DNA from: Vicinamibacteria bacterium
Lineage (GTDB): Bacteria; Acidobacteriota; Vicinamibacteria; Fen-336
NCBI GenBank assembly: GCA_050246895.1
Contig: JBFWVE010000006.1
Location: 251,770-315,769 of the forward strand
Reading direction: 5' to 3'
Length of the DNA stretch: 64,000 bases
The notes beneath the pieces were generated by a model. That model had not been told where the DNA came from, ran no database searches, and saw only the letters and a program-made list of their open reading frames with translations. This document shows positions 1 through 31,075 of this stretch, piece after piece. The position numbers and the translations under genes were made by a program. The stretch's first letter is position 1, and the number at the start of each line of letters is the position of its first letter.

Positions 1-293
1 TCGGGGTCCATCACCTTGAGGTACAGGATGCCGTCGACCCCGACCTGCACGTTGTCACGCGTGATGCAGATCTGCTCGGGGATGTCGATCGCCTGCTCCT
101 TCAGCATGTGGCGATAGCGGATCACGTCCACGAAGGGCACCAGGATGTGGAAACCCGCCTCCAGGACGCCCGAGAAGCGGCCGAGCCGCTCGACGACGTA
201 GGCGTTCTGCTGCGGCACCACGACCGCCGTCTTGAAGAACACCCAGAGCACGAACAGCGCGAACAGAAACGCGACGAACAGAAGTCCGCCCAT
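1..293 (-). CDS. SPFH/band-7 (stomatin/HflC-like) membrane protein, 5' part only (runs off window start)
   Basis: Minus-strand translation from ATG (rc of cat 291-293) reads MGGLLFVAFLFALFVLWVFFKTAVVVPQQNAYVVERLGRFSGVLEAGFHILVPFVDVIRYRHMLKEQAIDIPEQICITRDNVQVGVDGILYLKVMDP, a classic SPFH N-terminus. An AGGAGG RBS sits in the 18-bp gap after the upstream NfeD gene. It is absent from the ORF track because it is truncated. Confidence 0.75.
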   Translation of the reverse strand, partial: MGGLLFVAFLFALFVLWVFFKTAVVVPQQNAYVVERLGRFSGVLEAGFHILVPFVDVIRYRHMLKEQAIDIPEQICITRDNVQVGVDGILYLKVMDP

Positions 294-311
294 GGCTCGC
301 AGCCTCCTTGA

Positions 312-743
312 CTACTCGAGATGCACGAGGAGCGTCAGCCCCTCGACCCGATCGACCACGCAGCGCCTCCCCGCGGGGATCGCCGTCGCTCCGCCGTTGC
401 GGGCGTTCCAGCTGGCGCCGCGCAGCTCCGCCTTGCCGATGGCGCCGACGGCGATCTCTTCCTGCGCCATCGCCACCTCCCCGGGGATGCTGTCGACCGC
501 GCGCCCGGGCCGGATGCTGCCCAGCCGCTGCTTGAGCGGCCCGCGCAGGAAGCCGAGCAGCGCGATGGCGAGCCCCGCGAAGAGCAGCCACTGCATCCAG
601 GCTGGCCCGGCCCAGCCGACGCCGGCGAGCGCCCCGACGGCCAGCGCCGACACGCCGAAGAACGCGGCGAAGAACCCCCCGGGCAGCGCGACCTCGAGCG
701 CGAGCAGGCCCAGGCCGATCACGACCCACAGCCACCATTCCAT
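312..743 (-). CDS. NfeD-family membrane protein (stomatin operon partner)
   Basis: The internal Met83 of track ORF 312..989 gives MEWWLWVVIGLGLLALEVALPGG... (two TM helices) and a C-terminal beta-barrel-like GKAELRGASWNARN...VVDRVEGLTLLVHLE. It lies directly upstream of the SPFH gene, which is the canonical NfeD-stomatin arrangement. Confidence 0.7.
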   Translation of the reverse strand: MEWWLWVVIGLGLLALEVALPGGFFAAFFGVSALAVGALAGVGWAGPAWMQWLLFAGLAIALLGFLRGPLKQRLGSIRPGRAVDSIPGEVAMAQEEIAVGAIGKAELRGASWNARNGGATAIPAGRRCVVDRVEGLTLLVHLE

Positions 744-782
744 GACGTCACCCTCGAAGCAGAAAAGCTGCCGAAGGCTAAC

Positions 783-891
783 ACGCGAACGGAGGCAACG
801 GACGGGCGACGGACGTGAACGTCCACGTGAAACGTGAACGTGAACGGGGCCAGGGCGCCCGAACGGCCTGAACGTGAACGTGAACGGGCGC
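783..891. repeat. Intergenic repeat cluster, GTGAACG orientation: GGCGACGGACGTGAACGTCC core plus (GAACGT)n hexamer tandems
   Basis: The sequence here is ggcgacggacgtgaacgtccacgtgaaacgtgaacgtgaacgggg...cctgaacgtgaacgtgaacgggcgc. It contains the palindrome GGACGTGAACGTCC. The same family recurs at 6005-6146 (inverted), 27706-27775, 28315-28408, 28967-29060, 29636-29675, 30401-30526 and 30935-31075. Confidence 0.6.
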
Positions 892-1287
892 TTATGACCA
901 GTTCTCGACTCGAAGCCCCGGCACCCGGCGGAAGTGGCGTGTGTTGTTCGTGACCACGGTGAGCCCGCGCGACAGCGCCTGGGCCGCAACGAGCGTGTCC
1001 AGGATTCCTATCGGACTACCCTTGCCGGCCAGGCCCGCGGCCACCTCCGCAAAGCGCTCCGCTGCTGCCTCATCGAACGGCAACACCGTCAGGTCCTTCA
1101 CGAAGCTGCGGATTGCCTTTCGGAGCTTCTGCGATTTCTTGCGTTCAGCTCCGAATCGCAGCTCAGCCAGCGTAATCGAGCTGATACAGAGGTCGGACGG
1201 CACGTGCTCGAGGATGCGAGCAGCTGCTTGCCCGTGGCCGCGGAGGGCGTAGCTGACGGTATCTGCATCAAGCAGGTACCGGGGCAT
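892..1287 (-). CDS. vapC: VapC PIN-domain toxin
   Basis: From Met34 of the track ORF: MPRYLLDADTVSYALRGHGQAAARILEH...ITLAELRFGAE...LDTLVAAQALSRGLTVVTNNTRHF, a PIN fold with acidic residues. The ATG overlaps the vapB stop in an ATGA overlap. Confidence 0.85.
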   Translation of the reverse strand: MPRYLLDADTVSYALRGHGQAAARILEHVPSDLCISSITLAELRFGAERKKSQKLRKAIRSFVKDLTVLPFDEAAAERFAEVAAGLAGKGSPIGILDTLVAAQALSRGLTVVTNNTRHFRRVPGLRVENWS

Positions 1288-1526
1288 CAGGCGAACGGGT
1301 TTCGCGTGCGGAAGAGGCGCTCCTGCTTCGGGCGAGGAATGTCCTCGGCGATCGAGCCCAGGCAGCCACGGAACTCGGCCGACCATTCATCGGCCGGCTC
1401 GAGGATCACCCGACGTCCCTCCCGGCGAACCAGGACCTCACGCTGGGACCCAAAACGGTAGGCCTTCGGCAGCCGAACCGCCTGGCTTCCGCCGTTCTGA
1501 AACAGCTTCGCTCGAATCGCCTTCAC
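1287..1526 (-). CDS. vapB: VapB antitoxin (AbrB/SpoVT/MazE-type swapped-hairpin)
   Basis: MKAIRAKLFQNGGSQAVRLPKAYRFGSQREVLVRREGRRVILEP is the SpoVT/AbrB motif. The gene is 79 aa with a GTG start and is translationally coupled to vapC. Confidence 0.8.
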   Translation of the reverse strand: MKAIRAKLFQNGGSQAVRLPKAYRFGSQREVLVRREGRRVILEPADEWSAEFRGCLGSIAEDIPRPKQERLFRTRNPFA

Positions 1527-1562
1527 GCCGCGAGTATAGATGCTCGTCTATACGTCCGTCAA
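1527..1562 (-). promoter_or_regulatory. vapBC promoter with an inverted-repeat operator (TATAGA-N6-TCTATA) overlapping the -10
   Basis: The minus strand reads TTGACG-18nt-TATACT, then 8 nt, then the GTG start, so the transcript is likely leaderless or short-leader. The perfect 6-bp inverted repeat TATAGAcgagcaTCTATA (plus 1535-1552) sits between -35 and -10. This is typical of TA autoregulation. Confidence 0.45.
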
Positions 1563-1678
1563 CTCTCCAACTCACTCTCGTGTCCGCCCACGCGCGGTCA
1601 GTTCCCGGCTGGAGCCGTGCTCGTGAACGGTTCCAGCCGGCACTCTTCATCTTCCCCCTGCGACCGATGACCCACCAC

Positions 1679-1993
1679 TCACGGCTCCGCGAGGAACGCG
1701 CGATCTCGGACACGATCAGCCTCCGGGTAGAAGGTCGGTTCCAACTCCCGAATCGCAACATAGATGCGAAGTGCCCGTCGCGCGTTCGCCACCGTAGGAG
1801 CTGCAACCGCGCCGGCCCCGAGCCAGCCGACGGTAAGCCTGGCTCCCTCAGCCGCCACACCGATCTCAATAGACGGGTTGAGGCCGTCGATTGCCCCCTC
1901 CCGTAGTGCCCCGACAAGCGGAGCGCATGGTTGCTGTTGAACGTCGCAACGAGAGTGCGCCTCTCGGGGGAACCGCAGTAACGCGGATCCCAT
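1679..1993 (-). CDS. Hypothetical small protein (possibly a gene remnant)
   Basis: The ORF is 104 aa with moderate GC3 like the neighbouring island genes rather than the core genome. It is A/G-rich and has no recognisable motifs. Confidence 0.2.
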   Translation of the reverse strand: MGSALLRFPREAHSRCDVQQQPCAPLVGALREGAIDGLNPSIEIGVAAEGARLTVGWLGAGAVAAPTVANARRALRIYVAIRELEPTFYPEADRVRDRAFLAEP

Positions 1994-2051
1994 CGTCTGA
2001 ACCCCCCTGATGACAGAACCTGCCCACCATTGCCCCGGCGAACACGCTCGC

Positions 2052-2531
2052 TCACTGGAAGCCTGCTTCTACGAGCCGCCGCAGGAGCATTGAGGCGAAA
2101 GACAGGTGGTCGAGGCAAAGGTCAGGATCATCGCGCACGTCGTACTCGTGACCCCGAGGATTGCGGATGGCGAGCATCGAACCCGCGAACAGGAACTGGT
2201 ATCCCTTTTGCTCGTCCTGTTGCGAGGCAGTAACGAGCGGTGTGAGCCGCAGCGGCGGGGCATCACCGCCGAACACCTGCATCATGAGCTTGAAGCCTGC
2301 TTCGGAAGAACGGGCGTGTCGCTGAACCTGCTTGTCGACGAACTTGTAGGCCTCGAATGTAGCCTGAGCGAAGTGCCCATCATCAAACAGTCGACGTACG
2401 CGGCCCGGCAACGATGACGAGATGTTCCGTGTCTCGAATGGGTGCTGCGGCGCACCCTGCTGGCTCGCGGGTGCCGCGAAACGGCGCGCGCTACGAACGA
2501 TCCGTTCAAAGGCGGCGAAACTACTCGACAT
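2052..2531 (-). CDS. HEPN-like protein (TIGR02391/Abi_C-like) with an RNxxxH motif
   Basis: The 159-aa protein reads ...YQFLFAGSMLAIRNPRGHEYDVRDDPDLCLDHLSFASMLLRRL. R-N-x3-H is the canonical HEPN Rx4-6H active-site motif. It overlaps the upstream gene by 11 bp (operon) and has lower GC3 than the core genome. Confidence 0.6.
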   Translation of the reverse strand: MSSSFAAFERIVRSARRFAAPASQQGAPQHPFETRNISSSLPGRVRRLFDDGHFAQATFEAYKFVDKQVQRHARSSEAGFKLMMQVFGGDAPPLRLTPLVTASQQDEQKGYQFLFAGSMLAIRNPRGHEYDVRDDPDLCLDHLSFASMLLRRLVEAGFQ

Positions 2532-3192
2532 CGATCAGGTTCTCGCGGAGGCTTTTGAATATCCGGTCGTACGTGGGCTGGTCCGCGTCCGCGGGGAGGT
2601 TGATCTCGACGCGAACGGTCAGGCCGACGTCCCGAGCCCGTTTCGCGGCAGACACATCGATGGGCGACGGCGTCGGGGGTGCTGCGGCCTTGGGCTTCAC
2701 AGTTGCGCCCTTCTGGCTCTTCGTAGCCTTGGCCTTGGCGTCAGTCGTCCGGGTCGTCGGTGGCTCGGCCTTGCCGGCGATCGCGGACAGAGCTTGAAAG
2801 GTCGTCGCCTGACGCCTTCCGACGACACCGCTTGTCTCGTCTGTGGATCGGAAGTACTGAATGAGCTTGTTTTGGTCCAGGGACCACGCGGAATCGCCAT
2901 GCAGGGTGAACAGGTCACCGTAGGCATCCTTGACGAGCTTCGAGAATGCCTTCTGGAATGAGTCGTTGGCATGCTGCGTGAACACCTTGGCGCCTTCCGC
3001 CGTCTTCTTGCCCTCCTGGTCGAGAGCATTGATGAAGCGGAGGATGTTGATGACGTAACCCTCGTTGTTGGGCGCAAGTCCGAGCTTCTTGAGCGTCTCG
3101 GCTGTGACCGTGGCCGGAAAGGACTTGCGCAGCTGTTCAACGATCTGAAACAGAGGGCCGCTGCCTGACATGTAGGGGTGTTTCTCAGCCAT
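2521..3192 (-). CDS. Hypothetical protein, partner of the HEPN gene (N-terminal globular domain, K/A/P/T-rich linker, conserved C-terminal ~40 aa)
   Basis: The 223-aa protein has an ATG start with an AGGAGA RBS. It reads MAEKHPYMSGSGPLFQIVEQLRKSFPATVTAETLKKLGL..., then a low-complexity TTRTTDAKAKATKSQKGATVKPKAAAPPTP linker, then LTVRVEINLPADADQPTYDRIFKSLRENLIDVE. Codon usage is low-GC. Confidence 0.55.
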   Translation of the reverse strand: MAEKHPYMSGSGPLFQIVEQLRKSFPATVTAETLKKLGLAPNNEGYVINILRFINALDQEGKKTAEGAKVFTQHANDSFQKAFSKLVKDAYGDLFTLHGDSAWSLDQNKLIQYFRSTDETSGVVGRRQATTFQALSAIAGKAEPPTTRTTDAKAKATKSQKGATVKPKAAAPPTPSPIDVSAAKRARDVGLTVRVEINLPADADQPTYDRIFKSLRENLIDVE

Positions 3193-3356
3193 CGCTCACA
3201 TCTCCTTCGGTTTCACAGTGTGTCGCAACGTGCCCGCCTAACACCGCGGAGGCTGCGAAACGACTCAATCAACGAAAATAGCCTCGCCGGCGCGCCACGG
3301 CCGGTCCCGTTTAAGAGATCCGCGCGTCGTCGCATTCATGCGCTTGTTCGGCCGCC

Positions 3357-3899
3357 TCAGGCCTCCGCTGCATCCTGGTCGACAACGAGTGTCGCAAGGA
3401 ACGCGGACAGCCGCCTCACATCGGCCGACTTGAGGTCCGTCGGCAACGACATGCGGGCGATTCGCCCTTCGCGCAGCGGGAACGGATACTCCACAAACCC
3501 CACCGTCGGAGGGAGCGTCGCCTTCTCGACCTCCTCCGCCGATTCGGCGCCCGGCCGACCCCGCTCGAGCTTCCCGTTCCGAGGTGGTCGTTCCTGGCCA
3601 CCGATCTTCCAGGACGAGGGGTCCTTGAGATAGCCCAGATACGAGGCATGGGCTTTGCGGAAGCGCCGTTCATACTCCTTAAGGCTATCGGGCTTGTACT
3701 CCCTCCCCTTGAGCGTCCGGAATCTCCTAAGGAGGCCATCCACGTCAACTGTGGAGATGTCCAACGCCTCCCAACCCTTCTCGATCTCGAGGACCTTGGT
3801 ACATGCGGCGCGAAGCGCGTTGGCCGTATTCGCGTTGAGGAGACCCTTCCCGGCGGCCCATTCCCAGTGTCCGACGAACTCTCTCCCCGTGCTGCCCAC
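3357..3899 (-). CDS. Hypothetical protein (181 aa) in the low-GC island
   Basis: The start is at GTG (Val62 of track ORF 3357..4082), preceded by AGGAG-7nt. The protein reads VGSTGREFVGHWEWAAGKGLLNANTANALRAACTKVLEIEKGW...KEYERRFRKAHASYLGYLKD.... No family was recognised. Confidence 0.5.
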   Translation of the reverse strand: MGSTGREFVGHWEWAAGKGLLNANTANALRAACTKVLEIEKGWEALDISTVDVDGLLRRFRTLKGREYKPDSLKEYERRFRKAHASYLGYLKDPSSWKIGGQERPPRNGKLERGRPGAESAEEVEKATLPPTVGFVEYPFPLREGRIARMSLPTDLKSADVRRLSAFLATLVVDQDAAEA

Positions 3900-3948
3900 G
3901 AAAGAACTCCTACGGAAGCGGGATGGCCCCTTGCCATCTCCAATCTGG

Positions 3949-3977
3949 AATATATGATATCTATATCGATCTGTCAA
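3949..3977 (-). promoter_or_regulatory. Near-consensus sigma70-type promoter (TTGACA-17-TATATT) in an AT-rich stretch
   Basis: On the minus strand, TTGACA (plus 3977-3972) is followed by 17 nt and then TATATT (plus 3954-3949). This is about 45 nt upstream of the GTG at 3899, and the local AT-rich block runs 3905-3985. Confidence 0.5.
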
Positions 3978-4112
3978 TGAACTACAGATGGCATATCGGC
4001 GGCGGCCCCGCACGACCTTCGCTGGGTGGGCCGGACACACGGATAAGCCAGGAACCCGCGATGCTCGCCGCGAGGCGAGCACGCGACGCCGCGGGCGATG
4101 CGAAGAGGTTCG

Positions 4113-4490
4113 TTAGTCTGTCTGGTTGTTGTGCGGGTCACTCGATGCTCCCAAGGCGAGCCTCAACGAGGGCGACGACCTCCGATAGGACTCGTGCGTC
4201 CGGAGCAATTGGAGGAGAGTGCGTTCCCAGAACAGAGTAGTGCTTGTCTCTAAGAGCCCCTGTTCAAGCGCGGCGGCACGATCACGGAAAGCACGGTGTT
4301 GCTCAAACAACTCTTGCCGCGACGCGCAGGTTCGCAGAAGGGCATTGCCTCTTGCCGTTGTGCGCAAGTTCAGGTGTAGTGCGATCCTCGAAAACGGGGA
4401 CGATGCCTTGGGGGACGAGCTGTCGCCTGTGCGCCCAATTGAGTGGGCCACCATGCGCGGCCCACATGGACGGCAGAGTCCGCAGAACAC
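4113..4490 (-). CDS. Hypothetical small protein with an N-terminal CxxCxxC (possible zinc finger)
   Basis: The protein reads MFCGLCRPCGPRMVAHSIGR.... Codon usage is low-GC (TTA, ACA, ACT). An alternative overlapping minus ORF at 4303..4599 makes the frame choice uncertain. Confidence 0.3.
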   Translation of the reverse strand: MFCGLCRPCGPRMVAHSIGRTGDSSSPKASSPFSRIALHLNLRTTARGNALLRTCASRQELFEQHRAFRDRAAALEQGLLETSTTLFWERTLLQLLRTHESYRRSSPSLRLALGASSDPHNNQTD

Positions 4491-4576
4491 CTCTGGATTG
4501 ACCTGCAGGGGGCGCCCAGTCTGTTGGCAGCAGATCTTGTCTGCTCCAATCCTCTGTTCGACGGTCGTGCGGAGGG

Positions 4577-5128
4577 CTAGGGTTGTTTGTGGTTCGCATC
4601 TCTGCTCATCGTCAGCTTGAGGATTTCGGAATCTAGCCGAGCGATCTCCCTATAGATCGCCGCCGCCTGGGGCCCAAACCCCGGGCGGTCGGATCTGTGG
4701 ACCTCCGAGACCATTCCGCTCTGCAGCTTCTCCAAAGCCATTTGCTTCTCTCGAATGAGTTTGTCAAGGGACTCATAGTGAGCCTTCTCACGAAGAAAGG
4801 CCTCCACCGTACCAAGCCATTTGTTGTCCGACTCGCCGTACGCCGCAGAAATAATGGCCAGCGCCTCACCACGTTTCTCTGAGTCCGGTTCCCTAACCCA
4901 TTCCAGAAGTAGCCTTGCCCGCTCGCGCGCGATGGTCTCCTTCGAGGCCTCCCGGTTTAGAGCGGACTCGGGTCGTTGAACAAGCCAAAAAACGAACGCC
5001 GCGCCAAGAACCGCCAGGAGGGCCTTGACCACCTCGACTCTCAGTTTGGCCTGTTCAAGCCGAAGGGCCGGGTCCACGACTGGCGGCGCAGGTCCCTCTC
5101 GTTTGTCGTCGGGCATTGCTGGTCTCAT
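4577..5128 (-). CDS. Membrane-anchored coiled-coil protein (single TM helix plus a long helical region)
   Basis: The protein reads MRPAMPDDKREGPAPPVV...LRVEVVKALLAVLGAAFVFWLVQRP (TM), then EASKETIARERARLLLEW...LDKLIREKQMALEKLQSG...IYREIARLDSEILKL. A GGAAGG RBS is present, with an alternative start at 5116. Codon usage is low-GC. Confidence 0.45.
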   Translation of the reverse strand: MRPAMPDDKREGPAPPVVDPALRLEQAKLRVEVVKALLAVLGAAFVFWLVQRPESALNREASKETIARERARLLLEWVREPDSEKRGEALAIISAAYGESDNKWLGTVEAFLREKAHYESLDKLIREKQMALEKLQSGMVSEVHRSDRPGFGPQAAAIYREIARLDSEILKLTMSRDANHKQP

Positions 5129-5267
5129 CTCCCTTCCGTCGAACAACGCCAGGCAGCTGACAAGATGATCCCGCTAGCACTGCAGTCAATAGTGCCAGCC
5201 GTGGACCGGCATGTGTCGGGGACTCTCCAGATTGGCCGAGATTAAGAGTTGAAGGAGTGTAGCGCCG

Positions 5268-5774
5268 TCAGCGGCGCGAGGGCGTGTCGAATTTATGCAT
5301 CAGGCCGACCAGCATCGAGACGATGCGGATCAGCAGCGATCGCCCGCGGCGGTGGTCGGCTGGGCTGATCAGGCCGCGGGCCAGCAGCAGGTCGAGCGCA
5401 GCGGCTGACTCCGTGGCCGACCCGCGGGCGATCGAGAAGAACTGGACTTTCTCCCCGGAAGACGAGCGGCCCGCACCCTCCGCCGTGTTCAGGCAAATGC
5501 TGACCGAGGCGCGGTCGAGCTGGTCGCGCAGGGCGCCGAGACCGCGGCCTCGACACAAGCGCGCGGCAAGCTGCTGGAACTCGAGCGAGACGCGATAGGC
5601 GTCGAGCCGGTCGTGCTCCAGCCAGGCGTCGGGCTGTGGCTCACGACCACGAGCCGGCAGCGGTTCACGACCGGGAACCGGCGACGGGCACGGGCGGGCT
5701 GGAGCAGCGGACGCACCGGCGGGAGCGGGGCCGGCTGCGGGATCGCCTGCGGGACTGGTGGAGCGATGGGCCAT
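5268..5774 (-). CDS. Four-helix-bundle protein (TIGR02436 / 23S rRNA IVS protein family, Avd-like fold)
   Basis: The sequence AYRVSLEFQQLAARL...LRDQLDRASVSICLNTAEGAGRSSSGEKVQFFSIARGSATESAAALDLLLARGLI matches the family signature. A ~50-aa Pro/Ala-rich N-terminal extension precedes it. A strong GGAGGTGA RBS sits before the ATG. Confidence 0.75.
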   Translation of the reverse strand: MAHRSTSPAGDPAAGPAPAGASAAPARPCPSPVPGREPLPARGREPQPDAWLEHDRLDAYRVSLEFQQLAARLCRGRGLGALRDQLDRASVSICLNTAEGAGRSSSGEKVQFFSIARGSATESAAALDLLLARGLISPADHRRGRSLLIRIVSMLVGLMHKFDTPSRR

Positions 5775-6004
5775 CTGTCACCTCCGTTCGGGCCGGCGAG
5801 GGCCGGCCTCTCGCGAAGTGGAGGCCGGCCCGAGCGGAACGAAGGTGACAGCAAGGCCAGCGACGCCCCGAGCAGGAGCCGCGCACGCGCCGTGACGCCG
5901 CGGCAGTTCAGGCGGTTCTGTCCGGCGGCGGGCCGCGGCGGCGCGCCGCGTGCAGCGCGGCCGTCAGGGCGTCCTCAGGCCGCCGCGCTCCCCCTTGGTC
6001 GTTG

Positions 6005-6146
6005 CCGTTCTCGTTGACGTTCACGTCTGTAGCCGCTCGCCCCGTTTCGTTCACGTTCACGTTGCCCGTTCCCCGTTCACGTCCGTAGCCACCCGCCGCC
6101 GTTCCGTTCATCGTTCACGTTCCCGTTTGCGTTCACGTCCGCAGCC
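6005..6146. repeat. Intergenic repeat cluster in the opposite (CGTTCAC) orientation: at least 3 copies of the CGTTCACGTC(C/T)G(T/C)AGCC core plus (ACGTTC)n
   Basis: The sequence here is gttgacgttcacgtctgtagccgc...ttcacgttcacgttgcc...cgttcacgtccgtagccacc...cgttcacgttcc...cgttcacgtccgcagccgg. Its reverse complement matches the 27706/28315/28967 elements (GGCTACGGACGTGAACG). Confidence 0.6.
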
Positions 6147-6192
6147 GGCCCGTCGCCCCCCGAACGAGGCTTAGAGTTGTCCCGCACGAAAG

Positions 6193-6621
6193 ATGCCCGT
6201 CCTGACCGATCCCCTCGGCTGGTTCACGCTGCGCTTCCCGGAGGAGTGGGAGCAGACGACCGAGGACGGCGTGACGGTGCTCGGCACGGGCGTGGGCACG
6301 GTCTTCGTGGGCGGCGGCCGCCACGCCGCGGGGCCGCAGCCCGGCTTCGGGGGCTCCGACTTCCTCGCGCGCTTCCTGCGCTCGATCGGCCTGTCCGTGG
6401 AGGAGGCCGCGATCGAGCAGAGCGAGGGCATCGGCTGCCGCATCTACCACTACCGGCGCGAGGCGGAGCAGGCGCACTGGCGCTACTGGTCGGTGACCGA
6501 CGACGAGACGGCCCTGCTGATCTCGTACACCTGCGCGGCGGAGCACGCCGGGCGGGACAGCGACGAGGTCGAGTCTCTGGTCGGCTCGGTGCGCCTGTTC
6601 CACTCCGCGCGGCCCGCCTAG
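6193..6621 (+). CDS. Hypothetical protein (142 aa)
   Basis: The ORF has normal composition (MPVLTDPLGWFTLRFPEEWEQTTEDGVTVLGTG...) and high GC3, with the repeat cluster in its upstream region. Confidence 0.5.
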   Translation: MPVLTDPLGWFTLRFPEEWEQTTEDGVTVLGTGVGTVFVGGGRHAAGPQPGFGGSDFLARFLRSIGLSVEEAAIEQSEGIGCRIYHYRREAEQAHWRYWSVTDDETALLISYTCAAEHAGRDSDEVESLVGSVRLFHSARPA

Positions 6622-6648
6622 CCCGAGGCGGCGAGCTATGATCCGCCG

Positions 6649-7527
6649 ATGCGACCCGCGCTGATCGTCCACGGCGGCTGCGGCACGCCGCCGCCAGACG
6701 AGGAGCGTCCGCGCCAGCTCGCGACCGAGCGCGCCGCCGACGCCGGCTGGGCCCTGCTCTCGCAGGGGGGCAGCGCGCTCGACGCCGTCGAGGCGGCGGT
6801 GCGCCGGCTGGAGGACGAGGAGGTGCTGAACGCGGGCACCGGCGCCTATCTGCAGGCCGACGGCGTCGCCCGCCTCGACGCCAGCCTGATGGCCAGCGAC
6901 GGCCGCGCGGGCGCGGTGTTCCAGGCGCCCAACCTGAAGAACCCGATCCGGCTCGCCCGCTACCTGCTGGAGCAGGACGCGCACGTGGCGCTCTCGGGCC
7001 GCGAGGCGCTGGAGCTGGCGCTGCGCCTGGGCCACGATCCGGCCGTGCTGGCGACGCGGGCCAAGGCCGACTACTGGCGCGACCACCTGGATCAGGCGAG
7101 CCAGCGTCTCGACTACGAGGCGATGGGCCGCGTCTGGCGCGAAGGCAACCCGCGCCTGGGCACGGCCGGCTGCGTGGCGGTGGACCGCGACGGGCGGCTG
7201 GCCGCGGGCACGTCCACCGGCGGAACCGGCCACTGCTACCCGGGCCGCGTCGGCGACACGCCGATCATCGGCGCCGGCACCTACGCGATGCCGCGCGTCG
7301 CCGTCTCGCTGACGGGCGTCGGCGAGCGCATCATGGTGCTGCTGTCGGCCAAGCGCCTGTGCGACCTGGTGGCGGACGGCCGCCCGCTGATGCTCGCCGC
7401 GGAGGCGGTGATCTCGGAGGTCACCAAGACCCGCAGCTTCGCGGGCTTGATCGCGGTCGACCCGTCGGGCCAGCTGGTGGACCTGCGCAACACGCCGTCG
7501 ATGCCCGTGGCGCGGCGCAGCGCATGA
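6649..7527 (+). CDS. Isoaspartyl peptidase / L-asparaginase (Ntn hydrolase, plant-type asparaginase family)
   Basis: IVHGGCG...EVLNAGTGAYLQADG...GTAGCVAVDRDGRLAAGTSTGG (Thr nucleophile) ...TPIIGAGTYA. Confidence 0.85.
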   Translation: MRPALIVHGGCGTPPPDEERPRQLATERAADAGWALLSQGGSALDAVEAAVRRLEDEEVLNAGTGAYLQADGVARLDASLMASDGRAGAVFQAPNLKNPIRLARYLLEQDAHVALSGREALELALRLGHDPAVLATRAKADYWRDHLDQASQRLDYEAMGRVWREGNPRLGTAGCVAVDRDGRLAAGTSTGGTGHCYPGRVGDTPIIGAGTYAMPRVAVSLTGVGERIMVLLSAKRLCDLVADGRPLMLAAEAVISEVTKTRSFAGLIAVDPSGQLVDLRNTPSMPVARRSA

Positions 7528-27705: not shown

Positions 27706-27775
27706 ACGGCACGGAGGCAGTCGGCTACGGACGTGAACGGGAACCGGGAACGGCAACGTGAACGAAAGGTGGACC
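27706..27775. repeat. Repeat-family copy (GTGAACG orientation)
   Basis: The sequence is gacggcacggaggcagTCGGCTACGGACGTGAACGGGAACcgggaacggcaacgtgaacg, directly after the stop of 26079..27704. Confidence 0.55.
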
Positions 27776-27810
27776 CAGGGCAGCAGCGTGGATCATGGAG
27801 TTCTGCGGCG

Positions 27811-28050
27811 GTGGACCGTGACTTCGAGCTCGTCGGGGAGATCCTGGAGATCGAGTCGATCGCGGCGGGTCGGGCCGTTCGGGACCGGCAGCGGCTCATC
27901 CGTTTGTACGGGAAGGGTCGTTGGCGCAAGATGAAGGGCATTGCTCGGATCCGTCTGCGTCTTGGAGGGGTCCGGTTGGCGGAACTGCACTGGTATGAAG
28001 CGCACGGCATCGGCCGGAAAGAGCTCAAAGCGAAGCGGTACCTCGACTAG
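27811..28050 (+). CDS. Small hypothetical protein (about 80 aa, start uncertain: GTG 27769 or 27811)
   Basis: The protein reads VDRDFELVGEILEIESIAAGRAVRDRQRLIRLYGKGRWRKMKGIARIRLRLGGVRLAELHWYEAHGIGRKELKAKRYLD, with mixed GC3 codon usage. The annotated 5' end of the track ORF lies inside the repeat and is likely spurious. Confidence 0.4.
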   Translation: MDRDFELVGEILEIESIAAGRAVRDRQRLIRLYGKGRWRKMKGIARIRLRLGGVRLAELHWYEAHGIGRKELKAKRYLD

Positions 28051-28078
28051 GCGCCCCAAGGGCCCCGAGAGGAGGTTC

Positions 28079-28282
28079 GTGGTCTGCGTCCGGAACTCGG
28101 GCTATGAAGCCTCGCTCGAGCAGAACAAGATCTACCTCGTGCTTCCCGACTTGGATGCAGAGCGGCACCAGCAGCTCCGCGTGGTCGACGAGAGCGGCGA
28201 GGATTATCTCTTCTCTGCTGACCGCTTCGTCGCGATCGACGTGCCAGCCGCCGTTCGCGACTCGCTCCTCAAGGCGTCTTAG
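28079..28282 (+). CDS. Small hypothetical protein (67 aa)
   Basis: [13 protein letters not shown] precedes the GTG start. The protein reads VVCVRNSGYEASLEQNKIYLVLPDLDAERHQQLRVVDESGEDYLFSADRFVAIDVPAAVRDSLLKAS. It lies 29 bp after the previous small gene, making a possible two-gene module. Confidence 0.45.
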   Translation: MVCVRNSGYEASLEQNKIYLVLPDLDAERHQQLRVVDESGEDYLFSADRFVAIDVPAAVRDSLLKAS

Positions 28283-28314
28283 TCCCCCGGGCCGGCGGTC
28301 AGTCGTCGGCGGAC

Positions 28315-28408
28315 GACGGCGGCGGTCGGCTACGGACGTGAACGTGAACGAGCAACGTGCACGTGAACGTCGGGAGGCGGCCTAACGGACGTGAACGGGA
28401 ACGTCAAC
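28315..28408. repeat. Repeat-family copy A, about 94 bp and identical to copy B
   Basis: The sequence is gacggcggcggtcggctacggacgtgaacgtgaacgagcaacgtgcacgtgaacgtcgggaggcggcctaacggacgtgaacgggaacgtcaac. It is preceded by the hairpin GTCGTCggcgGACGAC. Confidence 0.7.
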
Positions 28409-28423
28409 GACAACGAGGGCGGG

Positions 28424-28993
28424 ATGCCGCCCACGGTGCAGCTGGCGGGCGCGCGCCTGCGCGGGCTCCGGCCGGAGGACGCCGCGGCGTGGTACCACTA
28501 CTTGAGCGATCCTGTGGTGACCGAGCTGACGAGCTATCCGACGCTGACGTTCGCGGCGGTCGAGTCGATGGTCGAGCACTACCGCGAGGGCTACACGGCA
28601 GGCACGTCGTGCAAATGGGCGATCGCCGCCGGGCCCGACGACACGCTCGTCGGGACCTGTGGGTTCAACGAGTGGTCGCGGAGCCAAGGCTGGGCCGAGC
28701 TGGCCTACGAGCTGGCCGCTTCCCACTGGGGCCGTGGGCTCGCCACGGAAGCTGTTGGGGCCTGCCTGGCCTGGGCGTTCGAGCAGCCCCGGTTCAACCG
28801 GGTTCACGCGTTCGTGATGGTCGGCAACGTCCGCTCCGAGCGCGTTCTGCAACGTGCCCGTTTCACCCGAGAGGGTTGCCTCAGGTCGTACCGCACGTGC
28901 CGAGGACTGCCGCGGGACTTCTGGGTGTTCAGCCTTCTTCGCCCCGAATGGGAGAGTATGGACAACGACGGCGGCGGTCGGCTACGGACGTGA
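28424..28993 (+). CDS. GNAT-family N-acetyltransferase (RimJ/RimL-like)
   Basis: From Met12 of the track ORF: MPPTVQLAGARLRGLRPEDAAAWYHY.... The acetyl-CoA binding region is GTCGFNEWSRSQGWAELAYELAASHWGRGLATEAV. The last nine codons and the stop lie inside repeat copy B. Confidence 0.85.
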   Translation: MPPTVQLAGARLRGLRPEDAAAWYHYLSDPVVTELTSYPTLTFAAVESMVEHYREGYTAGTSCKWAIAAGPDDTLVGTCGFNEWSRSQGWAELAYELAASHWGRGLATEAVGACLAWAFEQPRFNRVHAFVMVGNVRSERVLQRARFTREGCLRSYRTCRGLPRDFWVFSLLRPEWESMDNDGGGRLRT

Positions 28994-29060
28994 ACGTGAA
29001 CGAGCAACGTGCACGTGAACGTCGGGAGGCGGCCTAACGGACGTGAACGGGAACGTCAAC
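28967..29060. repeat. Repeat-family copy B, a perfect direct repeat of copy A lying 652 bp downstream
   Basis: It is the same ~94-bp string as 28315-28408, with stop codons in all six frames. Confidence 0.7.
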
Positions 29061-29276
29061 CTGAACGACGAACGTGACGAACGGCCAGGTGAAGGTGGGG
29101 AGGATTCAGAGGCTCCCTTCGAGCTGCGTGAGATCGACGACGAGGCCGAGGGGGAACCACCGCGCGGCGAGGGGCTCGGCGCCGCCGGCCAGTTGATCGC
29201 GGCGCTGGGTATCTCTGCGGTACTGGGTCTCCTGATCGTCGGCGCACTCGCGGTGCTTTCATGGCTGTTCGCGTGA
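29043..29276 (+). CDS. Possible small membrane protein (acidic N-terminus, one C-terminal TM helix)
   Basis: The protein reads ...EAPFELREIDDEAEGEPPRGEGLGAAGQLIAALGISAVLGLLIVGALAVLSWLFA. The only in-frame start is the GTG inside the repeat, so support is weak. Confidence 0.25.
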   Translation: MNGNVNLNDERDERPGEGGEDSEAPFELREIDDEAEGEPPRGEGLGAAGQLIAALGISAVLGLLIVGALAVLSWLFA

Positions 29277-29311
29277 CTTGGCGCCGTACGTTCCGGAAGG
29301 CCTGAGCGGCC

Positions 29312-29668
29312 GTGCTCCTCCTGGTTCTCGGGTGTGTCGTGGCGCTCCAGGCGTGGGTGTGGCGCGATCTGTCCACCCGCGTCGAGTGCGGCGGGCTCAG
29401 CAAGATGGGCGCGGTGATCCGCTACGCCCTCTGGGCCCTGATGCCCCCGCTTCTCTTCGTCGTGGCCTTCCTGGTGGGCGTGGGGCTCGAGGAGTGGCTC
29501 GACGTGGCGCTGATCCCAGAGCTGCTGGGGCGGGCGGCGCTTCCCGTGGGAGTGTTTCTCGTTGGCTCTGCCGGGCTTGGCTCAATATGCTTCGGGGTCA
29601 GGTCGGTCTGGCTGGAGGCGCCGGCGGGACGGAGCCGACGTGAACGTGAACGAGGAACGTCCGGGTGA
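29312..29668 (+). CDS. Small integral membrane protein (3 predicted TM helices)
   Basis: The protein is VLLLVLGCVVALQAWVW...AVIRYALWALMPPLLFVVAFLVGVGL...LPVGVFLVGSAGLGSICF. The start is GTG, and the stop falls inside the next repeat copy. Confidence 0.45.
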   Translation: MLLLVLGCVVALQAWVWRDLSTRVECGGLSKMGAVIRYALWALMPPLLFVVAFLVGVGLEEWLDVALIPELLGRAALPVGVFLVGSAGLGSICFGVRSVWLEAPAGRSRRERERGTSG

Positions 29669-29675
29669 ACCGACT
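29636..29675. repeat. Short repeat-family copy
   Basis: The sequence is cgacgtgaacgtgaacgaggaacgtccgggtgaacc. Confidence 0.5.
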
Positions 29676-29710
29676 TCGGCTCGATCTCGACGCGGAACCG
29701 GAGAGTGCTC

Positions 29711-30400
29711 ATGCGCCATCGCGAAAGACACCGGACCGGCCGCGTTGGCTGGTTGCGCGCGGCGGTGCTGGGGGCGAACGACGGCATCGTGTCGACGGCG
29801 AGCCTCCTGGTCGGCGTTGCGGCGGCCGGGGCGACCAGCCACGACGTCGTGGTGGCGGGGGTCGCAGGGCTGGTCGCGGGGGCCATGTCCATGGCCGCGG
29901 GTGAATACGTCTCGGTCAGCTCCCAGGCAGACAGCGAGCGGGCCGACATCGAGCGCGAGCGCGGGGAGCTTGCGACGAACGAAGAGCACGAGCGGGAGGA
30001 GCTGGCGGCGATCTACGTCCAGCGCGGTCTGGATCCTCCGCTCGCGCAACAGGTCTCCGCGCAGCTCATGGCCCACGACGCGCTGGGCGCCCATGCTCGC
30101 GACGAGCTGGGCATCTCCGACACGCTCAGCGCGCGGCCCGTACAGGCGGCGCTGGCCTCCGCCGGTTCGTTCGCCGTGGGCGCGGCACTGCCGCTCCTGA
30201 CGGCTGTCGTCGCCGCCGGCGTCCCCGTCATCCCAGTCATCGCCGGAACCGCGCTGGTATTCCTCGCGCTCCTAGGCGGCTTGGCCGCGGTCGCCGGCGG
30301 TGCGAACGCCGTGGAGGGGGCTGTGCGCGTGACGTTCTGGGGTGCGCTTGCCATGGCGCTGACCGCGGGCGTCGGCGCCGTGTTCGCGACGGTCGTGTAG
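29711..30400 (+). CDS. VIT1/CCC1-family (vacuolar iron transporter-like) membrane protein
   Basis: From Met3 of the track ORF: MRHRERHRTGRVGWLRAAVLGANDGIVSTASLLVGVAAAG is the PF01988 signature. Hydrophobic C-terminal helices follow. A GGAGAG RBS precedes the start. Confidence 0.85.
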   Translation: MRHRERHRTGRVGWLRAAVLGANDGIVSTASLLVGVAAAGATSHDVVVAGVAGLVAGAMSMAAGEYVSVSSQADSERADIERERGELATNEEHEREELAAIYVQRGLDPPLAQQVSAQLMAHDALGAHARDELGISDTLSARPVQAALASAGSFAVGAALPLLTAVVAAGVPVIPVIAGTALVFLALLGGLAAVAGGANAVEGAVRVTFWGALAMALTAGVGAVFATVV

Positions 30401-30526
30401 GTTCGTTCGTTCACGTTCACGTGCGTCGTTCACGTTCACGTCCGTCCGAGCCGGGGAGCCTCAGGTCGACGGGAAGGCCACGGGCGTGAACGTCAACGAC
30501 CAACGTGAACGTGAAAGGCGGGCGGA
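30401..30526. repeat. Palindromic repeat-family copy: left arm (CGTTCAC)x4, ~37-bp spacer, right arm (GTGAACG)x3
   Basis: The left arm is gttcgttcgttcacgttcacgtgcgtcgttcacgttcacgtccg and the right arm is gggcgtgaacgtcaacgaccaacgtgaacgtgaaagg. The arms form an imperfect ~35-bp inverted repeat. Confidence 0.6.
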
Positions 30527-30534
30527 GGCGACGG

Positions 30535-30912
30535 GTGGTTGCGCTCGAGGCGTTCGAGGTGAAGGACGGGTACGCCGTCTTCAGGCCCGCTGGGCCGACG
30601 ACGGTCGAGCAGCTCCTGGTGATGCTCGAGCAGGCGATGAAGGCTTGCCAGGACGCGGGCGTGGCGAGACTCCTCGTGAACGTCTCGCGACTGAGACACC
30701 CGGACCTGACGACCAGCGACCGGTTTCACCTGGGCGACCGGATGGCGGCCTTCTGGGATCGGAGGATCCGGCTGGCAGTCGTTCCCAGGGAGGATCAGAT
30801 CGACCCCGAGCGGTTTGGCGCCTTCGTCGCGCAGAATCGCGGGTTGCGCGTAGGCCCCCACGCCGACGAAGCCGCGGCGTTGAGCTGGCTGATGTCGGAT
30901 TCGGAGCGCTGA
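30535..30912 (+). CDS. Hypothetical protein (125 aa), possibly STAS/anti-sigma-antagonist-like
   Basis: GGAGG lies 6 nt before the GTG start. The protein reads VVALEAFEVKDGYAVFRPAGPTTVEQLLVMLEQAMKACQDAGVARLLVNVSRLRHPDLTTSDRFHLGDRMAAFWDRRIRLAVVP.... The fold assignment is tentative. Confidence 0.45.
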   Translation: MVALEAFEVKDGYAVFRPAGPTTVEQLLVMLEQAMKACQDAGVARLLVNVSRLRHPDLTTSDRFHLGDRMAAFWDRRIRLAVVPREDQIDPERFGAFVAQNRGLRVGPHADEAAALSWLMSDSER

Positions 30913-30934
30913 GCTGCCTCCAGGCCAACCCTTC

Positions 30935-31075
30935 CACACGTTCACGTTCACGTGCGCCGTTTCACGTTCACGTCCGTCCAGGCCCGCGGGCCAACGGACG
31001 TACGGACGTACGGGCTGACGGGTCGGTGATACGGACGTGAACGTGAACGTCAACGAGAGCGTCAACGTGAATGCT
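30935..31075. repeat. Palindromic repeat-family copy: CGTTCAC arm, spacer with GGACGTAC x2, GTGAACG arm
   Basis: The sequence is cacgttcacgttcacgtgcgccgtttcacgttcacgtccgtcc...ccaacggacgtacggacgtacggg...gatacggacgtgaacgtgaacgtcaacgagagcgtcaacgtgaatg. Confidence 0.6.

Follow-up and report, generated by a model that had tools for sequence, protein, structure and literature searches.

We describe here a two-gene cassette at positions 2052-3192 of a 64,000-nucleotide stretch of DNA from a Vicinamibacteria bacterium (assembly GCA_050246895.1, contig JBFWVE010000006.1, positions 251,770 to 315,769), which we refer to as the window. The first gene of the cassette encodes a DUF5343 protein of 223 aa, and the second, overlapping gene encodes a 159-aa HEPN protein of the Ymh family. 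In many bacterial immune and toxin-antitoxin (TA) systems, cells are killed or arrested by a HEPN RNase, and we consider it fairly probable that the cassette is of the TA or abortive-infection (Abi) type, with a HEPN RNase restrained by the DUF5343 protein. An initial annotation, made from the sequence alone, had proposed a candidate novel Abi or defence module of five minus-strand genes spanning 2052-5128. A TA or Abi role is still the most sensible reading for the pair; the five-gene extent was not sustained, and both families of the pair already have names.

A Ymh-family HEPN gene strictly paired with a DUF5343 gene

The 159-aa protein matched the Pfam family Hypoth_Ymh (PF09509) with an E-value of 2.1e-26 and 92.6 bits (cut-off 25), and the NCBIfam model TIGR02391 with an E-value of 3.8e-17 and 62.5 bits (cut-off 39.45). 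Judged by these profiles, it is clearly a member of the Ymh/TIGR02391 HEPN family. Ymh has been listed among the HEPN families whose Rx4-6H motif is conserved, and it occurs in restriction-modification (R-M) and Abi contexts (Anantharaman et al., 2013, PMC3710099). The initial annotation had called the protein HEPN-like from the string AIRNPRGHE, and the profile matches agree with that call, as does the conservation of the motif in the proteins encoded beside DUF5343 genes, which we took as the orthologue set. R123, N124 and H128 are kept in 79 of these 81 orthologues, the two exceptions being one contig-truncated and one degenerate copy, and all three residues are invariant in an alignment of 76 members (A5). 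An invariant R-N-P-x-G-H marks the 159-aa protein as a predicted metal-independent RNase. The subfamily also carries a specific N-terminal extension of about 37 residues, outside the Pfam match, with F8, H30 and F32 as invariant and R35 as a nearly invariant position. In PADLOC, all 76 aligned orthologues matched the C-terminal domain of PD-Lambda-3_B (best E-value 1.3e-21) and the Argonaute-associated Aga_HEPN, while neither sequence nor profile searches found a PDB relative for the HEPN or the DUF5343 protein.

Two side observations concern the integrity of these copies. At HEPN residues 36-38 (2418-2426), which belong to the N-terminal motif HPF[DE]xRNIH, the window copy has S38 at a position occupied by H in 72 of the 81 orthologues; both cassette genes in the window are otherwise full length. 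On a contig of an uncultured Fibrobacter (L087), the HEPN partner aligns over a shortened length with only 40% identity, its R...H motif is missing and its frame continues into a 443-aa open reading frame (ORF); this is probably a decayed or mis-assembled cassette.

The association of the two genes was assessed in one genome from each of 185,579 species, where we found 231 loci encoding a DUF5343 relative (about 0.12%) and analysed the best 80 of the 231. A Ymh-HEPN gene lies immediately 3′ of the DUF5343 gene in 79 of these 80 loci, all from different species, and the lone exception stops at a contig edge. The tie between the HEPN gene and an upstream partner, suggested in the initial annotation, is thus confirmed, and of the five genes it is the last two that recur together; the five form no recurrent unit. 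In the window the two ORFs overlap by 11 nt, and the overlap measures 4-17 nt in 74 of the 75 loci with both ORFs delimited. A Shine-Dalgarno-like site precedes DUF5343 in 68 of 79 loci. We found the same pair in four further metagenome contexts, including one beside an EcoRI R-M system, one between LysR and DUF1801 and one between TctC and PrpD.

The hosts of the 80 loci span Acidobacteriota, Alpha-, Beta-, Gamma- and Deltaproteobacteria, Bacteroidota, Cyanobacteria, Verrucomicrobiota, Planctomycetota, Nitrospirota, Actinomycetota, Chloroflexota (Anaerolineales) and Bipolaricaulota. Their flanks vary too: 125 Pfam families are represented among the 150 nearest neighbours, and no third gene recurs. 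Ordinary metabolic genes make up the majority of these neighbours, next to a few genes for integrases, transposases, ThsA, restriction enzymes or methylases. With DUF5343 as the query, tblastn gave no match in the plasmid and phage collections, and only 2 of 2.9 million IMG/VR contigs carry the gene. Because the pairing is strict, the neighbours vary and the hosts belong to many phyla, 2052-3192 is, as far as sequence comparison can tell, an autonomous, horizontally moving chromosomal two-gene cassette. For annotation purposes the system is 2052-3192 only, and what remains of the five-gene segment is mobile-element debris together with a leader gene of separate interest.

The same survey bears on whether the pair serves the cell in a housekeeping or regulatory capacity, as a nucleic-acid-binding complex whose HEPN domain would process or bind a specific cellular RNA. 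Many copies do have ordinary metabolic genes on either side, sequenced phages and plasmids almost never carry the pair, and some HEPN families, such as MtlR and Las1, have a part in regulation or processing (PMC3710099). A housekeeping complex is nevertheless hard to reconcile with a pair that only about 0.12% of species genomes contain, that is scattered over many phyla and whose variable flanks sometimes include integrases, transposases or R-M genes. Moreover, the window copy lies in an island of atypical GC beside vapBC and a pseudogene, and the closest profile relatives of the HEPN protein are domains of defence proteins. We regard this explanation as improbable.

Architecture of the DUF5343 protein

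The initial annotation had left all four companions of the HEPN gene without a family it could name, which no longer applies to the 223-aa protein. It matched Pfam PF17278 (DUF5343) with an E-value of 7.9e-13 and the PADLOC model PDC-M34A (PDLC04589) with an E-value of 1.8e-26 over profile positions 1-207 of 208, the C-terminal peptide included; orthologues from Pseudomonas and Sodalis likewise match PDC-M34A end to end. We collected 968 homologues at E≤1e-3, typically of 220-245 aa, and an alignment (A1) divides the protein into three parts. The N-terminal ~140 residues are well conserved and are predicted to form a winged helix with a helical bundle, a fold of the kind that binds nucleic acids. 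The linker that follows, already recognised as disordered in the initial annotation, has a pLDDT (the per-residue score of the predicted structure) below 50 at residues 148-189; across A1 it varies in length from about 45 to 100 residues (median 51), its sequence is unconserved and its net charge is positive in all 59 homologues measured (+3 to +8, median +5). The protein ends in a near-invariant peptide of 34 residues, with the A1 consensus GLTVRIEINLPxxxDQxTYDRIFKSIRENL, whose invariant columns are T192, V193, R194, E196, N198, L199, P200, Y208 and L219. In the monomer model a helix spans 205-220 and the strand of the peptide has no partner. We infer that the peptide is a HEPN-docking or dimerisation element. 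Fold searches against viral structures returned nothing at E≤0.001.

Two short DUF5343-domain proteins of 162-172 aa (L124:948-1466 and L136:2533-3021) possess neither the C-terminal peptide nor a detectable HEPN neighbour, so the DUF5343 N-terminal domain also exists outside the HEPN pairing.

Table 1. Coordinates of the cassette, its parts and the neighbouring features in the window.
Feature	Positions	Strand	Basis or remark
Ymh-family HEPN protein, 159 aa, predicted RNase effector	2052-2531	minus	PF09509 and TIGR02391 profiles
HEPN Rx4H catalytic motif R123-N-P-R-G-H128 (predicted)	2148-2165	minus	orthologue conservation
DUF5343 protein, 223 aa, conserved HEPN partner	2521-3192	minus	PF17278 and PDC-M34A profiles
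DUF5343 N-terminal domain, residues 1-142: winged helix-turn-helix, then helical bundle	2767-3192	minus	
Disordered K/A/P/S/T-rich linker, residues 143-189	2626-2766	minus	pLDDT
Near-invariant C-terminal peptide GLTVRVEINLPADADQPTYDRIFKSLRENL, strand then helix	2524-2625	minus	A1 conservation
180-aa protein: recombinase core-binding (SAM-like) domain, disordered linker, conserved C-terminal beta-hairpin and helix	3357-3899	minus	
Sigma-70-like promoter TTGACA-17-TATATT	3949-3977	minus (3977->3949)	11/12 consensus positions
Pseudogene, remnant of a ~160-aa family carrying the ...LYVGRTGDSSSP...SPFSRI... motif	4123-4490 (ORF 4113-4490)	minus	tblastn
Single-pass membrane protein, near-orphan	4577-5128	minus	called as 179 aa, start 5116
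vapBC TA pair (context only)	892-1526	minus	vapC 892-1287, vapB 1287-1526

A proposed mechanism and its alternatives

The layout of the cassette is that of type II TA systems, with two small, adjacent, co-directional genes that overlap and are translationally coupled, the partner first, and so is its distribution, which is patchy, suggestive of horizontal gene transfer (HGT) and set in variable contexts. In the mechanism that we propose, the C-terminal peptide of the DUF5343 protein would bind the HEPN protein, probably at the subfamily-specific N-terminal extension or at the active-site cleft of the HEPN dimer, and would keep the RNase inactive or sequestered, like type II antitoxins. The N-terminal domain of the DUF5343 protein would bind DNA or RNA, with the promoter of its own cassette or the nucleic acid or protein of an invader as its possible ligands. 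Loss, proteolysis or titration of the DUF5343 protein, for example during phage infection, would then free the RNase, which would cut cellular or phage RNA and bring growth to a stop. Toxicity, neutralisation, trigger and target are the inferred parts of this scheme. What we observed are the families to which the two proteins belong, the conserved motif, the strict pairing of overlapping genes, their patchy distribution and the domain architecture.

Several observations weigh against a restrained toxin. The partner protein, at 223 aa, is larger than most antitoxins, and its role could be that of a sensor or adaptor instead of an inhibitor. A k-mer search 5′ of 79 DUF5343 genes revealed no obvious conserved operator, the recovered k-mers being mainly Shine-Dalgarno-like or A/T-rich. 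Defence genes are a minority of the nearest neighbours, and no enrichment in defence islands was demonstrated. None of the 76 HEPN partners matched the PDC-M34B models at E≤0.01, and we found no mention of DUF5343 or PDC-M34 in the literature library that we searched. For Ymh/TIGR02391, the relevant literature coverage comprised only the 2013 HEPN survey (PMC3710099) and a 2012 paper from the same field.

A different way to read the architecture is that the DUF5343 protein acts as a positive specificity factor, so that the cassette would be a sensor-effector Abi system rather than a TA pair. The winged helix and the basic linker would recognise phage nucleic acid or protein, and the peptide would recruit the RNase or activate it allosterically. 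Such an arrangement would be a split version of the AbiJ-type proteins, in which an N-terminal sensor domain joined to a HEPN domain has been proposed (PMC3710099), and both the positive charge of the linker in every homologue measured and the match to the defence candidate PDC-M34A fit it. The partner-first, overlapping gene order and the disordered tail resemble, however, the arrangement typical of type II antitoxins, defence genes are found beside the cassette only now and then, and the present data do not separate activation from inhibition. We consider a specificity factor doubtful and favour restraint of the RNase by its partner. If that mechanism is true, it would be a second form of HEPN toxin control beside MNT-type AMPylation, and it would provide a function for DUF5343 and for the PADLOC candidate PDC-M34A.

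Relation to known systems

HEPN-MNT (HepT/MntA) is a two-gene cassette in which a small HEPN RNase toxin with an Rx4-6H motif is accompanied by an upstream neutralising partner. The cassette described here resembles it in its two-gene layout, its small Rx4-6H HEPN protein, its upstream partner and its patchy, HGT-driven distribution. It differs in that its partner is a DUF5343 protein with no match to a nucleotidyltransferase family and its HEPN protein belongs to Ymh and not to HepT. As DUF5343 has no nucleotidyltransferase domain, neutralisation by AMPylation is excluded.

A further comparison is with PD-lambda-3, a system reportedly described by Vassallo et al. in 2022. For all 76 HEPN partners, the best match in PADLOC is to the C-terminal ~125 residues of PD-Lambda-3_B. 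PD-Lambda-3_B is, however, a protein of 270 aa with another N-terminal half, and the match of the window HEPN protein covers profile positions 137-259 only. PD-lambda-3 acts by abortive infection (PMC13190303) and includes a PD-(D/E)XK protein (PMC10952713). Such a protein is absent here, and PD-Lambda-3_A gave no hit among the local proteins. As the HEPN domain is all that the two have in common, the cassette is not PD-lambda-3.

The Ymh forms surveyed previously were solos or fusions to paraMORC, AbiJ-NTD1 or AbiTii (PMC3710099). The 159-aa protein shares with them its profile membership and the Rx4-6H motif; a dedicated DUF5343 partner was not described in that survey, and the N-terminal extension of about 37 residues is specific to the present subfamily. 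In AbiJ-type proteins, a non-catalytic N-terminal module has been proposed to sense invaders and restrain the HEPN RNase (PMC3710099). The cassette follows the same logic of a non-catalytic module and a HEPN RNase, although here the two are encoded by separate overlapping genes and the module is DUF5343, not AbiJ-NTD1-5 or AbiTii.

PDCs are untested candidates predicted from their recurrent embedding in known defence loci (PMC12881386). Component A of one of them, PDC-M34, is matched by the 223-aa protein over the full profile; since no HEPN partner matches the B model, the cassette is not PDC-M34 as PADLOC defines it. The difference between the HEPN partner family and PDC-M34B suggests, at the level of profiles, that DUF5343-type proteins pair with more than one effector. 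Both genes of the cassette thus fall in catalogued families, and the pair itself is uncharacterised and well delimited. Its existence would not surprise a specialist, and the multi-gene novelty first attributed to the segment is gone; what the cassette offers is a compact, strictly conserved and phylogenetically broad unit, with a three-part partner that carries an obvious candidate docking peptide.

The 180-aa leader gene

Upstream of the cassette lies a gene whose 180-aa product (given as 181 aa in the initial annotation) contains a domain related to the core-binding (SAM-like) domains of tyrosine recombinases. It is not a recombinase: a catalytic domain with the RHRY tetrad is missing, and the protein carries a disordered linker and a conserved C-terminal beta-hairpin and helix instead. 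Its family shares a C-terminal motif, YPFPLREG...LP.DLK..E.KRL, that has no Pfam match. The near-consensus promoter that the initial annotation had placed ahead of this gene was recovered in our scan, which returned three sites against 0.6 expected; the one at 3977->3949 is the only strong promoter-like site in the region. On the minus strand, we detected no terminator-like site from 3357 to 3192, between this gene and DUF5343, and co-transcription of the 180-aa gene with the cassette, as a predicted three-gene transcript, is plausible.

We collected homologues of this gene from the window and from loci L091, L093, L095, L105, L106 and L109-L150. The family lies directly 5′ of a DUF5343 gene in four independent places (the window, L106, L124 and L136). 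In L106-L108 a 50%-identical homologue directly precedes DUF5343 and HEPN genes, and another homologue precedes a 262-aa Ymh protein that adjoins an XhoI R-M system. In about 38 assessable loci, the genes directly 3′ of the homologues are varied and mostly of conflict type: RhuM/PDC-S05 (4 loci), PDC-S23 (3), DUF5343 (4), protein kinases, GNATs, a DUF433/DUF5615 pair, PIN_10, Mut7-C, DUF1016 and a pair of HEAT and methylase genes. RhuM/PDC-S05 is a candidate that has been shown to protect (PMC12881386). Homologues of the 180-aa gene are absent from all 80 of the species-genome DUF5343-HEPN loci. The closest homologue with context, 72% identical, precedes membrane proteins, and on two contigs (L095 and L105) a homologue heads a phage-like replication module, with a recombinase adjoining in one of them.

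These observations bear on whether the cassette forms a three-gene unit in the window, with the 180-aa protein as a transcriptional regulator or DNA-targeting subunit expressed from the common promoter at 3977->3949. The promoter and the uninterrupted stretch ahead of DUF5343 are consistent with such a unit, and the same gene order recurs in L106-L108 at 50%, 53% and 60% identity for the three proteins. Relatives of the 180-aa protein also stand before the short DUF5343 proteins of L124 and L136 and before the Ymh protein beside the XhoI system; DUF5343 adjoins them in 4 of about 38 assessable loci, and this is a family that no more than 231 of 185,579 species genomes contain. The other downstream cargo (RhuM/PDC-S05 in four loci, PDC-S23 in three, kinases, PIN toxins) is of conflict type. 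The missing 180-aa gene at all 80 species-genome loci and the membrane-protein neighbours of its closest relative argue in the other direction, and the phage-like replication modules of L095 and L105 raise the possibility that it is just a conserved mobile-element gene bordering a cargo hotspot. A three-gene unit is possible, then, and on the unlikely side. From the genomic contexts, the 180-aa gene is best described as a putative leader at the edge of a mobile-element site with variable cargo; it accompanies DUF5343 facultatively and is not a fixed partner. Its family may mark an undescribed defence-cargo hotspot or may itself be a defence-associated regulator. We had initially considered the gene unrelated to the pair, a view we dropped after the recurrent, facultative adjacency emerged.

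The DUF5343 and 180-aa families might share an undescribed design, in which a disordered basic tether connects a nucleic-acid-binding domain to a short, invariant strand-helix peptide, and act as portable regulators or adaptors for interchangeable conflict effectors. On such a reading, which we offer very tentatively, DUF5343 may serve both Ymh-HEPN RNases and PDC-M34B, and the 180-aa family may mark a hotspot for cargo that includes RhuM, PDC-S23, kinases, PIN toxins and DUF5343 cassettes. If this is true, the cassette would represent a new class of control over HEPN toxins, based on a tethered peptide and not on the AMPylation of MNT. A common origin of the two families was considered and rejected: their architectures are parallel, but a profile-profile alignment gave a probability of 0.3%.

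The remaining genes of the segment

All five ORFs of the initial annotation were found where it had placed them; the fourth, at 4113-4490, is not an intact small CxxCxxC gene but a truncated, internally deleted and frameshifted remnant. An exhaustive profile-free search returned 64 representative proteins of about 110-210 aa, which match only residues ~17-58 of this ORF and a second short stretch. When intact members were compared with the window by tblastn, the window copy proved to lack the first ~35 residues and to have an internal deletion of 20 residues, an in-frame stop and a frameshift near 4254. The ORF is missing from the NCBI gene calls as well as from those of Logan, and its codon structure is weak. 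The parent family, which has no Pfam hit, is represented by P0151-P0214 and shows the motifs RGFWLYV...LYVGRTGDSSSP..SPFSRIGQHLD.R.NAKGN...GPLFPE...H.PFRD..AALE; their spacing looks GIY-YIG-like by eye.

The product of the fifth ORF, at 4577-5128, is membrane-anchored as first proposed, with one strongly hydrophobic 19-residue segment within residues 31-51 (Kyte-Doolittle 2.12). Among 5.8 billion clusters it has a single homologue, 43% identical, which lies on a short contig with unrelated neighbours, and it shows no link to the cassette elsewhere.

With these results, a single novel defence or Abi module made of all five co-directional ORFs is refuted. The ORFs do share a strand and a low GC content. 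Homologues of the third, fourth and fifth ORFs are absent, however, from the 80 pair-bearing loci, and these three show no mutual co-occurrence elsewhere; furthermore, the fourth is a pseudogene and the lone homologue of the fifth occurs in an unrelated context.

Composition and repeats of the low-GC block

The lowest GC content in the 64 kb is found at 1001-5000 (0.60-0.64, against a window mean of 0.72), and the next few kilobases beyond the segment reach 0.73-0.77. GC at third codon positions ranges from 0.66 to 0.79 for the genes of the island and from 0.87 to 0.96 for the core genes beside it, so that the initial annotation was right on both the base composition and the codon use of the segment. 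The block extends from about 890 to 5260 and contains vapBC, the DUF5343-HEPN cassette, the 180-aa gene, the pseudogene and the membrane-protein gene at 4577-5128; it is a mosaic of acquired and decaying pieces. The adjacent vapBC pair, also noted at the outset, was verified by a PIN match for vapC (E-value 1.3e-19) and by NCBIfam VapC and VapB matches for the pair, and the promoter scan placed a promoter-like site at 1562->1533 ahead of it. Between the HEPN stop and vapB is a 525-nt gap (1527-2051). One metagenome gene caller, but not NCBI, calls a 104-aa ORF in it at 1679-1993, with a weak codon signal. An Rfam scan of positions 1-7000 yielded no meaningful non-coding RNA.

On either side of the segment, at 805-890 and at 5992-6147, lie inverted arrays of a (GAACGT)n repeat, in line with the repeat-bounded island of the initial annotation. 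We considered these arrays as island ends and ruled them out, as arrays of the same kind recur at 27.7-31 kb: 16 more intergenic copies of the motif lie at 27749-31055, and its 22 matches compare with 0.03 expected by chance. Because of these dispersed intergenic copies, the flanking arrays are not an island-specific terminal repeat. The hexamer-periodic repeat AACGTGAACGTGAACG and its variants are intergenic, often just 5′ of start codons, and occur in both orientations. It is a dispersed genomic repeat that may be a regulatory site, a REP-like element or possibly a cause of the assembly breaks; two island-carrying Logan contigs stop within a few hundred bases of the repeat arrays.

Just beyond the low-GC block, at 5268-5774, lies a gene of host-like GC (0.72) for a four-helix-bundle protein, the 23S rRNA intervening-sequence protein (TIGR02436). 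Its product has a P/A-rich N-terminal extension of about 60 residues outside the family match, and the annotated start may be too far upstream.

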